Below are positions 39,987 to 64,000 of a DNA stretch of 64,000 nt, piece by piece. Location of the stretch: assembly GCA_963755915.1 (NCBI GenBank), contig CAVWLP010000002.1:4480001-4544000 (forward strand), given 5' to 3'. A model generated the notes under the pieces. It had not been told where the DNA came from, ran no database searches, and saw nothing but the letters and a program-made list of their open reading frames with translations. The position numbers and the translations under genes were made by a program. Source of the DNA: an uncultured Phycisphaerales bacterium. Its GTDB lineage: Bacteria; Planctomycetota; Phycisphaerae; Tepidisphaerales; Tepidisphaeraceae. Position 1 is the stretch's first letter. The number at the start of each line of letters is the position of its first letter.

Positions 39987-40040
39987 GTCGTGTTTCTCGT
40001 TTCTGGGGCATGGGAGTGCGCCACCCGGCCGAATGAAAAT

Positions 40041-40106
40041 CTCACGCAGAGGCGCAAGGCGCAGAGAATCTCGGTTTTCCTCTGCGCCTCTGCGCCTCTG
40101 CGTGAG
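40041..40106. repeat. Palindromic REP-like element of 8-mer CTCTGCGC units (CTCACGCAGAGG family) between convergent genes
   Basis: CTCACGCAGAGGCGCAAGGCGCAGAG...CTCTGCGCCTCTGCGCCTCTGCGTGAG. Confidence 0.9.
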
Positions 40107-40139
40107 GTTCTTCAAAGCGGGCATTAGGTGCGGCCTGGT

Positions 40140-60975: not shown

Positions 60976-62115
60976 ATGTTTGAGCGGAGCAACGCGAAGG
61001 ACGGAAAGAATTCTATTGTTCGAGCCGGCCGGGTCGTCGTGGAGGGGCTGGAGGATCGGCGGCTTCTCTCGGCGGCACATGGGTTTCCCATGATGGGATT
61101 TGGCGGCGGGCCGTTTGGGGGAGGGGCGTTTGGCGGGCCACCTCCGATTGGCGGAAGTACGATTCAGTTTGACCAGGCGCCCTCCGCAGTTCAGAGCGGG
61201 CTGGATTCGCTGGCGTCCACCGACGGACTTACAGCGCCGACGACGAGCCAGACGGTCTATCTCAGCAATAACAACGGCGTGGAGGGGTATTCCATTGATT
61301 TGAGCAGCAGCGGAAAGAACACCCGGCTGACCGTGGACGCAAACGGCGATGCCGTGACGGCGCCGACGCAGTCGACCACGACGTTCGGAGCGATCACCAA
61401 CACCGCGGTGACCAGCGAAATTAGCGCGATCGCGACGGCCCTGGATCTGACGACGCCCGCTTCCACGACCAATGTCTCCGTGCTCACCAACAGCAGCGGA
61501 AGTTCAACCTACACCGTGCACCTGAGCAGCAGCAGCAGTTCCTCGCCGTGGAGCGGGAGGACCATCACCGTCGATTCCAACGGAAATCCCGTCGGCAACG
61601 AGGTCCTGCCCTTCAGCGTGCTGCCGACGGCGATTCAGAATGGGCTCATCGCCAACGCGCCCAGCGGCACATCGCTTTCCAGCAGCTCGACGCAGAATGT
61701 TAATATCACCACGCAGGACGGCGTGACGCTCTACACCATGCAGTTCAACAGCACGGGAACGCGCACGAGCGTCACCGTGAATTCCAGCGGCGATCTGACG
61801 AGCCTGCCCAGTATCACGAGCACGACCTACGCCGACGTTCTCTCGACCGCCGCCACCGAGCTTCAGACGCTGGCGACGGCGGATGGGGTCAGCACGGCGA
61901 TCGCTTCGACGCAAAAAGTGCTCGAATTCAGCGAGTCGAACGGGACGACGGTTTATTCTTTGACTCTTCAGGATTCGACCAGCAAGCCGGTGACGATTTC
62001 GGTGGATGAGGATGGAAATCCAACGGTTCCACCGACCGATGGCAGCTTCGGGCCAATCTCCGTGCTGGGAGGATTCGGCTTCGGCGGATTTGCGTTTGGA
62101 GGCCCGGCGTTCTAG
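60976..62115 (+). CDS. Planctomycete LEPR-XLL (Planc_extracel) protein with four PepSY-like repeats
   Basis: AAGGAG RBS; VEGLEDRRLLS motif; repeats ending TVDANG/TVDSNG/TVNSSG/SVDEDG; Ser/Thr rich. Confidence 0.75.
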   Translation: MFERSNAKDGKNSIVRAGRVVVEGLEDRRLLSAAHGFPMMGFGGGPFGGGAFGGPPPIGGSTIQFDQAPSAVQSGLDSLASTDGLTAPTTSQTVYLSNNNGVEGYSIDLSSSGKNTRLTVDANGDAVTAPTQSTTTFGAITNTAVTSEISAIATALDLTTPASTTNVSVLTNSSGSSTYTVHLSSSSSSSPWSGRTITVDSNGNPVGNEVLPFSVLPTAIQNGLIANAPSGTSLSSSSTQNVNITTQDGVTLYTMQFNSTGTRTSVTVNSSGDLTSLPSITSTTYADVLSTAATELQTLATADGVSTAIASTQKVLEFSESNGTTVYSLTLQDSTSKPVTISVDEDGNPTVPPTDGSFGPISVLGGFGFGGFAFGGPAF

Positions 62116-62131
62116 GAGAAATAATCTCACG

Positions 62132-64000
62132 GTAGAGTAGAGAACTGAACGACCCGATTGCCGCTCAGCTCTCCCTCTTCGAACCGGACGAGCGGGTTTC
62201 CCGCATCCGGCTCTCACGGTATTGTTCTTCTCAAGCATTCACGGTCGGAACAGGTCGCAGGCTGATGAGGCCCAGACGCTGCAACTGTTCGTACCAGCTC
62301 CTCGCTCCGCGCACACGGAACGGACGCTGGCTGCGACGTTTAAGGTGTCGTTCCAGTCGCTCCTGCACAAATCGGTTGATCTGACGGAACGCCTTGCGCG
62401 GATAGCCTTTGCCGAAGTAGTTGGCCCATCCTCTCAGGTGCTCGTTGATCTGTACGATCAACGCCGGGATGGGCACAAAGCCTGCTTCGGGTCCGGTCAT
62501 CTCCCGCAATTTGTCCCGCTCACGCTGCATCGACTTGCTCGAAGGACAGAGGTTCAGATAACGCCCCGGCCCGCCTTGCAGGCTCCGGTCGTACCGGAAC
62601 CTGTACCCGAGAAAGTTCAGACTTTCGCCCGGCTCTTTCAACTTCACCGTGCGGGTCTTGTCGGTGTTGATCGTCAGATCAAACCGGCCTTGCAGCGTGC
62701 GTTCCACGAACTGCTTGATCTGAGGGCCTATATACCTTGCCATGATGACAAAGTCGTCGGCGTACCGGATCAGCCGGGCGTTCGCCCAGCGATGCGGGCC
62801 ATCGGATCGGTGGAACAATTTATCAAACCAGTGCAGATATAGGTTGGCCAGCAGCGGCGAGATCACTCCGCCCTGCGGCGTTCCCTGTTTGCTCCGGGTG
62901 ACTTTCGGTGGATCGCCGGGCTTCTCGCCTTCTTCGACGATCACCGCCTTCAGCCACATCCGGATCAGCTTCAGCACGCTTCCGTCCGTGATCCGCTTCT
63001 GGACACACGCCATCAGTTTCTCATGGGGAATCGTGTCGAAGTACGACTGCAAATCCGCGTCATACACTTCCCTTCGGCCCTGCTGGAGGTTTTGCTTGAT
63101 CGCCTCCAGCGCATCGTGAGCCGAGCGACCGGGACGGAATCCATACGAACAGTCCAGGAAATCCGCCTCGAAGATCGGCTCGATGAGCAGCAGCACCGCC
63201 ATCTGCACCACGCGATCTCGGATCGTGGGGATGCCCAATGGACGCCGCTTGCCGTTGGCTTTGGGAATGTACACGCGCTTCACCGGCTGCGGGCGGTAGG
63301 TGCGGGTCTTGAGCGATTCTTCGATCTCGCTCAGGAATCCACTGACGCCGTGCTCGGAGTTTTGCACCTTCTCGATGCTCACCCCGTCCAAGCCGGGCGC
63401 CCCGCCGTTGGCGGACACCCGGTCCCACGCCGCTTCCAGAACATCGCGCCGGCAGATCCGGTCGTACAAGGTGTAAAACCGAAACCCCGGTTCCCGCTTG
63501 GCTTTGAGGTATAGCTTCTGTCTCAGAAGAAAGACTTTCCCCGGCAGACCCCTGGAGTTCACCCTCAGGTGCTCCGGCAAGTCTGTCGGATCATCCGTAC
63601 TGTCAGGTTGTCCCTGCAAGCGGGCCTCTCTTCTTCTTACTTCCGCTCGATACCGTCAGGGCTCCTTGGCTCGCGGCAGGCTTCGCCTCCGCTCACGGGC
63701 ATTACCCCGCTTCTCAGCTACTATGAGCCCATCCGACTCCCCACGCTTCCCGTCCCTTGGTTATGTCTTTCCAACGAGCCGCACAACGATGCGTGGGGTC
63801 TCTCAGTTCCCGATCTTGTCTGTCGGCACGCGCCGTCCCCATCGACCCCGAGGAGCCGGACGATTGCTCGCACCCGCTGCTTCATCGTCCGCGCCGGCTT
63901 GGCCCTCTCTGACGGGTTGGCCACTCCCATTGGCGTAACGAGGCTGGTTTGGGTTCGCTTAACGCTACGGCTCGCGCCTTCGCCTTCCGGGGCTTCGCGC
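62132..64000 (-). mobile_element. Group II intron (non-IIC; class E/F-like assignment tentative), 5' end beyond the window
   Basis: Domain V GAGCCGGATGCGGGAAACCCGCTCGTCCGGTTC (62181-62213, AGC triad); domain VI ending CTACTCTAC at 62132; DI-DIII-like structured RNA upstream of the RT ORF. Confidence 0.95.
62231..63619 (-). CDS. ltrA: Group II intron reverse transcriptase/maturase, no C-terminal endonuclease
   Basis: RT0 (GAPGLDG), IPK.NG..RPLGIPT.RDR, SYGFRP, PQGG.ISPLLAN, RYADD, FLGY, X domain GWANYF; start codon uncertain. Confidence 0.95.

Follow-up and report, generated by a model that had tools for sequence, protein, structure and literature searches.

The window analysed here is the whole 64,000-nucleotide stretch of contig CAVWLP010000002.1 (positions 4,480,001 to 4,544,000, forward strand) from an uncultured Phycisphaerales bacterium of soil. 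At its right-hand end the minus strand carries a group II intron of 1973 nt, of which the 3′ 1869 nt (62132–64000) lie inside the window. The initial annotation, made from the letters alone, had proposed that this intron homes into a family of host palindromes resembling repetitive extragenic palindromic (REP) sequences, and had pointed to an intact, unoccupied member near 40041; that element is indeed present, at about 40034–40112.

Reading the genome contig on past the window places the 5′ terminus of the intron, GTGCG, at window-equivalent position 64104, just outside the window, where a GTGYG-like end had been anticipated. The 3′ terminus, ...CTACTCTAC, has its final base at 62132, as annotated, and is followed on the minus strand by CGTGAGATT (62131–62123), which closes the right arm of a palindrome on its outer side; the C with which it begins is the intron-binding site IBS3. 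Domains V and VI occupy 62132–62215 (minus strand) and match Rfam RF00029 over model positions 1–77 of 77 with 53.6 bits (cut-off 40 bits). In that alignment the catalytic triad of domain V is AGC (62181–62213), and domain VI ends in the 3′ terminus CUAC. The portion of domain I within the window (63836–64000, minus strand) gives a match to RF02005 (group-II-D1D4-6) that is truncated at the window edge and reaches 51.2 bits, above the cut-off of 49 bits, once the full domain I is included (locus L001).

The intron-encoded open reading frame (ORF; 62231–63619, minus strand) specifies 462 amino acids from the first listed start, with reverse transcriptase (RT) and maturase (X) domains. Pfam matches were RVT_1 (residues 118–341, E = 1.4e-33) and GIIM (residues 365–434, E = 8.6e-14), and the NCBIfam group II RT/maturase model TIGR04416 scored 389.9 bits (cut-off 300). 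As had been annotated, an endonuclease domain was not found: the Pfam search of the ORF returned RVT_1 and GIIM only. The ribozyme outside the ORF amounts to 584 nt (1973 − 1389). The 5′ GTGCG, the domain V triad, domain VI, the 3′ CUAC and the RT/X ORF are together what is expected of a group II intron.

Recognition of the exons

Two motifs in domain I had been put forward as exon-binding sites (EBS), and both were found as described: a CCC-GU-CAGAGA-GGG hairpin at 63903–63916 and CGCCAA at 63930–63935 (minus strand). In the RF02005 alignment CAGAGA (63906–63911) lies in a terminal hairpin loop and CGCCAA in an unpaired stretch. CAGAGA is assigned as EBS1 because it pairs in a fixed register, and covaries, with the 5′ exon (CUCUG, exon positions −5 to −1), and CGCCAA as EBS2 because it pairs and covaries with exon positions −7 to −12. 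EBS3 is a G at intron nt 262 (63843, minus strand), which pairs with the C that opens the 3′ exon, as covariation in relatives of the intron indicates.

At all 14 sites in this genome at which the 5′ junction could be read, EBS1 forms five of its six pairs and position −6 (C) stays unpaired. For EBS2 the proposed position held, but the pairing in this genome covers only four to five of six positions, with a central mismatch, the exon reading TCAGCG, TTTGCG, TCCGCG, CTTGCG or TTCGCG at −12 to −7. The full target predicted from the two motifs, TTGGCG-TCTCTG, is not the one seen at these sites, as position −6 is C rather than T and positions −12 to −7 differ. The predicted TTGGCG is instead the IBS2 of a sister intron in a congener.

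This sister intron (genome G002; 82% RT identity and 81% nucleotide identity to the window intron) has CCAAGA as its EBS1 and the exon ...TTGGCG-TCTTGG|CG, two compensatory changes away from the window intron, and its EBS2 matches at six of six positions. It provides the strongest single test of how the target is read. Its target is a second palindromic family of the genus, with the motif GGCGTCTTGGCG, which has 26 hits in G002, 27 in the present genome and 48, 102 and 2 in three others, mostly as inverted pairs, against 0–4 for controls. Since the two introns pair with separate families, two palindrome families are used within one genus. In the present genome the second family (unit CGTCTTGG, e.g. 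C2 2501525–2501566, 2822514–2822555 and 4361616–4361657) forms inverted pairs usually ~20–110 nt apart and is unoccupied by the intron.

The same pairings were followed through a wider set of relatives. Eighty loci encoding related proteins (43–82% identity) were collected from assemblies labelled Planctomycetota, Acidobacteriota, Gemmatimonadota, Nitrospirota, Thermodesulfobacteriota and others, and intron boundaries were set by nhmmer and end motifs. EBS1 forms at least five of six pairs with its own exon, in fixed register, in 31 of 35 distinct introns, as expected if CAGAGA is EBS1. The mean number of EBS1 pairs in these introns was 5.29 with the cognate exon and 3.73 with non-cognate exons (p = 5e-14), and the corresponding means for EBS2 were 4.37 and 3.84 (p = 0.001). 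The column of intron nt 262 is Watson–Crick complementary to exon position +1 in 36 of 38 distinct introns; no other column does better than 0.63. In eight Acidobacteriota-labelled loci (L042–L045, L053, L058, L087 and L111) the 5′ ends read GAACA, GTACA, GAATA or GAGCG instead of GUGYG; their boundaries are set by alignment and exon pairing only.

The palindromic repeats and their occupation

The unoccupied element at 40034–40112 carries the target GCGCCTCTG|CG on both strands, and on the plus strand contains AATCTCACG. A consensus scan at this element gave a short inner stem only. Iterated nhmmer searches seeded with it returned a family of ~45 loci with a median length of 68 nt and two types of arm end, ATCTCACG...CGTGAGAT and TTTCGCG...CGCGAAA. 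Each arm consists of 8-nt units (CCTCTGCG), and the count of units differs from locus to locus and from one arm to the other. Intrinsic terminators have a G+C-rich stem with a T run directly behind it; in this family T runs are enriched after the arm ends but far from universal: a run of at least four T within 15 nt follows 26 of 162 arm ends, compared with 203 of 5000 random 15-mers, and the T fraction there is 0.29 against 0.205.

The repeat motif GCGCCTCTGCGTGAG occurs 32 times in this genome where ~0 would be expected. With up to one mismatch it is also found in all 12 other genomes of the genus (2–100 hits each; 0–2 for the reversed control), whereas an RT match at E ≤ 1e-40 was present in only two of the 12, G002 and, at 38% identity, G010; these counts include one genome flagged as unpublished, G014, on which no result depends. 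The presence of the repeat in every congener, most of them lacking the intron, shows that it is a host repeat. The copies of the intron are near-identical while the repeat loci have diverged, and so the repeat is the older of the two. The intron is a recent arrival in this family.

No link of the family to REP sequences and their REP-associated tyrosine transposases (RAYTs) was found: the two Y1-transposase (RAYT-like) genes in contig C3 are flanked by other hairpins. Neither CAGAGGCGC nor CTCTGCG motifs were found in the flanks of these genes, and a GTAG head was not seen in the palindrome family. The two genes (C3:1125127–1125471 and C3:576500–576694) each have hairpin repeats of their own, GGGGACGCAGCTAG... 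and TTTAGCCGCGACCCGCAGGG..., which are further REP-type families of the genome.

Twelve full-length copies of the intron were found in the genome by blastn, nine of them at 100% identity and three at 99.95% (one difference each), together with three remnants: one copy with an internal deletion and two fragments, of 118 nt from the 5′ end and of 273 nt from the 3′ end. The deleted copy (C2:2850190–2851629) has lost 531 nt (intron nt 1403–1933), and with them the last part of the ORF as well as domain V; it is a dead copy and lies at a family locus, at the same kind of site. In each of the 14 readable cases genome-wide the 5′ junction falls after GCGCCTCTG, and in 14 of 14 readable cases the 3′ exon begins with CG (CGTGAG in seven, CGCGA in five and CGCCTC in two). 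This consistency is far beyond chance. Thirteen of the 14 5′ junctions lie within the 45 family loci, the fourteenth being in a degenerate half-element, and about 30% of the palindrome loci are now occupied. Beyond the repeat the DNA is different at every copy, on both sides, which makes spread by recombination or duplication of larger segments unlikely.

The 9-mer GCGCCTCTG occurs 127 times on the two strands. The intron sits at 14 of these; of the empty ones, 51 have CG next and 62 have other sequence. Eight occupied elements keep an intact target in the opposite arm, on the other strand, and no element is filled twice.

For the copy in the window, the plus strand had been predicted to continue past the window as CAGAG(A/G)CGC, and it reads CAGAGGCGC. 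The 5′ exon ends ...CGCGCCTTCGCGCCTCTG, with GCGCCTCTG at the junction, so that the two exons rebuild CTCTG|CGTGAG in the right arm, as proposed, with the 5′ exon ending CCTCTG. About 50 nt farther upstream the right arm is mirrored by AAATCTCACGCAGAGGCGCAAAGGCGCAGAG, and the left arm reads AAATCTCACGCAGAGGCGC.... The intron splits the palindrome between CTCTG and CGTGAG, 9 nt short of the end of the 3′ arm. The intergenic spacer that this palindrome fills is a convergent one. On the strand of the intron a 300-aa ORF ends 75 nt upstream of the junction, and the same arrangement, an intron-strand ORF ending 75–160 nt upstream, is seen at ~7 of 13 sites (counted on ORFs filtered by third-position G+C content, among which shadow ORFs are possibly included). 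The convergent neighbour (60976–62115, plus strand) is a 379-aa ORF that stops 17 nt downstream of the intron junction; its product is Ser/Thr-rich, with Gly/Phe-rich N- and C-terminal stretches.

Short-read contigs from four runs in two other studies break at the ends of the intron, with several distinct loose ends, and none joins across it. In one of these runs, X1, the word depth was ~52 over the intron and ~3.5–4.2 on its flanks, a figure that is not a copy number.

Class of the intron and competing explanations

The intron is IIB-like, shows features of classes E and F, and, as the initial annotation had held, is not IIC. Loops for EBS1 and EBS2 that pair with the 5′ exon are present in domain Id, and EBS3 lies in domain I, a IIB-type feature; in IIA introns the first base of the 3′ exon pairs instead with the δ base beside EBS1. 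A CGC triad in domain V is a mark of IIC introns, whereas the window intron has AGC. It differs from IIC also in its full-size domain I, its 5–6 bp EBS1 pairing, an EBS2 loop that is present and covaries, and a ribozyme of 584 nt rather than the compact ~400 nt. The targets of IIC introns are intrinsic terminators, downstream of which they insert, and attC sites (Robart et al. 2007 and Leon & Roy 2009, via PMC4424553; PMC1702495). The window intron, in contrast, inserts inside the 3′ arm, within the stem and 9 nt before its end, and its target sequence covaries with EBS1, EBS2 and EBS3. It resembles IIC introns in lacking an endonuclease domain, in having spread in multiple copies to inverted repeats between genes, where a stem-loop lies 5′ of the insertion, and in its protein, for which the nearest solved structure is that of the IIC RT GsI-IIC (6ar1, E = 6.7e-65).

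The likeness to classes E and F, a candidate assignment, is one of features. The intron combines an endonuclease-less RT + X protein with a IIB-like ribozyme that is small outside the ORF, where 450–700 nt is stated for IIE and IIF introns (Nagy et al. 2013, PMC3753933; Toro & Martinez-Abarca 2013, PMC3552965), and has EBS1 and EBS2 in domain Id. Its domain V aligns to RF00029 with a one-base deletion at the tetraloop, which allows a GAAAC or an AAA loop and would fit the 5-nt loop described for these classes (PMC3753933). A candidate α′ (CGGGU, in the terminal loop of the Id3 hairpin, the location given in PMC3753933) can pair by eye with ACCCG in an early domain I loop, and the long domain VI stem, also seen by eye, agrees with the description of class IIF in that paper. 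Ge.ur.I1, Pe.th.I2 and So.us.I2 belong to the class F core clade (PMC3753933, PMC3552965), among whose members are an acidobacterial and a planctomycete intron (PMC3552965). Solibacteraceae and Bryobacterales assemblies are among those holding relatives of the window intron, which for class F is only suggestive, and the best matches in plasmid records are 42–46% identical and carry no class labels.

A parallel in target is the IIF intron Ge.ur.I1-1, in whose 5′ exon IBS1 is repeated 9 and 19 nt upstream and the repeats are used as alternative 5′ splice sites (PMC3753933); a target of periodic units is common to both introns. The accounts of exon repeats in PMC3753933 and PMC3552965 do not relate them to a palindromic genomic repeat family.

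RmInt1 reportedly homes into the multi-copy element ISRm2011-2 of Sinorhizobium meliloti. The likeness lies in an endonuclease-less IIB-like intron (RmInt1 being of class D, IIB3; PMC4615759, PMC8914252) that reaches high copy number through a repeated homing element, and priming that depends on the replication fork would be the expected route. The target here, by contrast, is a 60–90 nt non-coding palindrome and not an insertion sequence (IS), and offers the site on both strands of one element. Among REP sequences and bacterial interspersed mosaic elements (BIMEs), which likewise serve as intergenic palindromic landing sites for mobile elements, two of nine copies of a group II intron in P. 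putida KT2440 lie at REPs (Tobes & Pareja 2006, PMC1525189). The present case differs from that one in that 14 of 14 junctions share a single fixed position within the repeat and the EBS sequences match the site. The present family is, like REPs, a multi-copy intergenic imperfect palindrome (~45 loci); unlike them it has no GTAG head and does not flank the Y1-transposase genes.

The explanation that best accounts for these results, with a probability of about 85%, is that a IIB-like intron whose protein lacks an endonuclease domain, and which is active or was so until very recently, retrohomes by ordinary EBS pairing into a host intergenic palindromic repeat unit. The excised intron RNA, bound to its RT/maturase, would recognise 5′-..GCG-C-CUCUG|C-3′, EBS1 (CAGAG) pairing with CUCUG, EBS3 (G262) with the C at +1, and EBS2 (CGC..) in part with GCG at −9 to −7. 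The RNA would then reverse-splice between the G and C of CTCTG|CG. Given the lack of an endonuclease, the cDNA would presumably be primed by the nascent strand at a replication fork. A single specificity would in this way have given the intron dozens of harmless intergenic landing sites, because ~45 loci exist and regular palindromes offer the site on both strands. The safe-haven idea of the initial annotation fits this intergenic setting.

Several observations weigh against this explanation. EBS2 pairing is weak and no better at occupied than at empty sites (p = 0.25), and EBS1 leaves position −6 without a partner. TCTGCG at −12 to −7, which places a second CTCTG|CG unit 8 nt upstream, is found at 22 of 51 empty sites and at none of the 14 occupied ones, while TCAGCG is found there at five of 14 occupied sites and one of 51 empty ones. 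The same 9-mer with C at +1 is filled in one of 25 cases outside the family compared with 13 of 61 inside (p = 0.057), a hint of an extra requirement. Pairing alone, then, does not account for which sites are filled. Poor splicing where a second unit lies upstream is possibly one reason for vacancy, given that repeated IBS1 motifs cause alternative 5′ splicing in Ge.ur.I1-1 (PMC3753933). Direct signs of activity were not found: no RNA run containing the stretch turned up, and an empty allele of the window locus was not seen in the contigs from the four runs of the two studies. The strand bias expected of fork priming was not demonstrable, the GC skew being noisy: nine of 15 copies agree with the sign of the skew at a 100-kb half-window and 10 of 15 at 250 kb. 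The copy orientations along contig C2 (- - + + + + + + + - + - -) are suggestive but, by a rough runs estimate, not significant.

The extra requirement could be structural. It is conceivable, though we consider it doubtful, that pairing is necessary and not sufficient, and that an upstream DNA stem-loop is also recognised, as by IIC introns at terminators or attC sites, for example in single-stranded DNA at the fork, so that the palindrome is a structural part of the target. The relatives were searched for a gap-free inverted copy, with ≤2 mismatches, of the 12 exon bases next to the 5′ junction. Such a copy is present in the 80 nt upstream of 10 of 55 unique sites and of five of 510 control positions taken from the same loci, so that the flanks of homologous introns are, as the initial annotation foresaw, not random. 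A direct copy of the last eight exon bases (≤2 mismatches) lies 7–10 nt upstream at 15 of 55 sites and at 15 of 510 controls. In a minimum free energy hairpin test ≥12 pairs were reached by 20 of 53 sites and by 53 of 294 controls; as G+C-rich controls also fold, the inverted 12-mer test was used in its place. Among the 52 sites at which both flanks could be read the inverted copy is upstream rather than downstream in 10 cases to one (≤2 mismatches) or 14 to three (≤3 mismatches), which puts the intron mostly in the 3′ arm. The 10 palindromic sites come from nine assemblies, but sites within one genome, and related genomes, are non-independent, so that p-values overstate the case. The purine-rich EBS1 must, moreover, land in the pyrimidine-rich 3′ arm on either strand, and the bias may be partly compositional. 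Seven identical introns (L072–L078, 60% RT identity) in one Thermodesulfobacteriota assembly each follow a GTGAATGCYT-like sequence, and five of them lie ~10 nt past a 13–14 bp hairpin of a repeat family, which resembles IIC geometry in an intron that does not look like IIC; the other two have no hairpin. Stem-loop recognition would also sit well with GsI-IIC being the nearest solved protein and with the occupancy contrast inside and outside the family, although that contrast is not significant and selection against genic insertions predicts the same. Two of the 14 junctions in the present genome (C2:4624852 and C2:3780871) have no CAGAG-type left-arm motif within 80 nt upstream. Thirteen sites in one Planctomycetota assembly share a common 5′ exon motif and have no inverted copy of it upstream, a point that also counts against generalisation. 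Overall the evidence on recognition of a hairpin or of single-stranded DNA is equivocal, and many but not all of the relatives use palindromes.

That the palindromes were themselves made or spread by the intron, as footprints of insertion and loss or as units carried along through an upstream alternative 5′ splice site, is very improbable. The variable number of 8-nt units between loci and arms would suit it, as would the occupation of ~30% of loci and the alternative 5′ splice sites of Ge.ur.I1-1 at repeated IBS1 motifs (PMC3753933). Against it, 12 of 12 congeners have this repeat with an identical arm end, an RT match at E ≤ 1e-40 was not found in 10 of them, and the divergence of the repeat loci around near-identical introns makes the repeats older. 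An intron origin of the family is thereby largely refuted, while changes in unit number driven by the intron are possible. Assembly error or collapse of a multi-copy element, which might be feared in a metagenome-assembled genome of three contigs rated 81% complete and 8% contaminated, is scarcely credible: unlike sequence lies beyond the repeat on both sides of every copy, the short-read contigs of the two other studies reach identical junction positions with their several loose ends, and relatives in independent assemblies have junctions of the same kind.

Two loci among the relatives have unusual structures. At L059 (~890–930) a single 8-nt unit (TGTCGTTG) separates the 3′ end of one intron, a copy or a fragment, from the 5′ end of a second; the two are tandem insertions into adjacent units of one arm. 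L004 (G049:C164) is a 64%-identical copy lacking domain I and with one in-frame TGA; it adjoins an ORF that was read, by eye and with no database search, as a putative IS3-type (rve) transposase.

Significance of the target choice

Retrohoming by EBS pairing is an ordinary mechanism; the interest lies in which target is chosen and in the fact that such targets recur within the lineage. A 2015 review lists three target specificities and gives plain site-specific homing for every class but C (PMC4424553), and a paper of 2021 states that upstream stem-loops were until then reported for IIC alone. A non-IIC lineage homing into REP-like palindromes was not found in a literature search, on which the class tables and exon lists of Simon et al. 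2008 may bear.

A broader proposition, which we regard as speculative and rather unlikely, is that a class-F-like lineage has a fourth natural target specificity, namely REP-like palindromes of pyrimidine-rich 8–9 nt units (YYYYG|CG) in several soil phyla, beside the known gene or IS homing sites, terminators and attC, with EBS1 retargeting, stem-loop recognition in the 3′ arm and a mutual shaping of intron and repeat. If this were true, one or two changes in EBS1 would carry the lineage from one repeat family to another, the 3′ arm would be preferred because the upstream stem-loop is part of recognition, and repeat units could be gained or lost through the use of alternative 5′ splice sites farther upstream.

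For the window intron itself, a non-IIC intron with a complete and covarying EBS1/EBS2/EBS3 code uses a host palindromic repeat as its homing site. This suggests a route by which an intron lacking an endonuclease may proliferate without damage to genes, and the sister intron, which two bases direct to a second repeat family, provides a natural example of retargeting. It also suggests how the odd alternative 5′ splice sites of Ge.ur.I1-1 may be understood, and indicates that periodic palindromic repeats of a widespread and apparently unnamed type exist in Planctomycetota, Acidobacteriota, Gemmatimonadota and other phyla. The intron and its palindromes also lend themselves to a clean test of whether reverse splicing is promoted or impeded by DNA hairpins.

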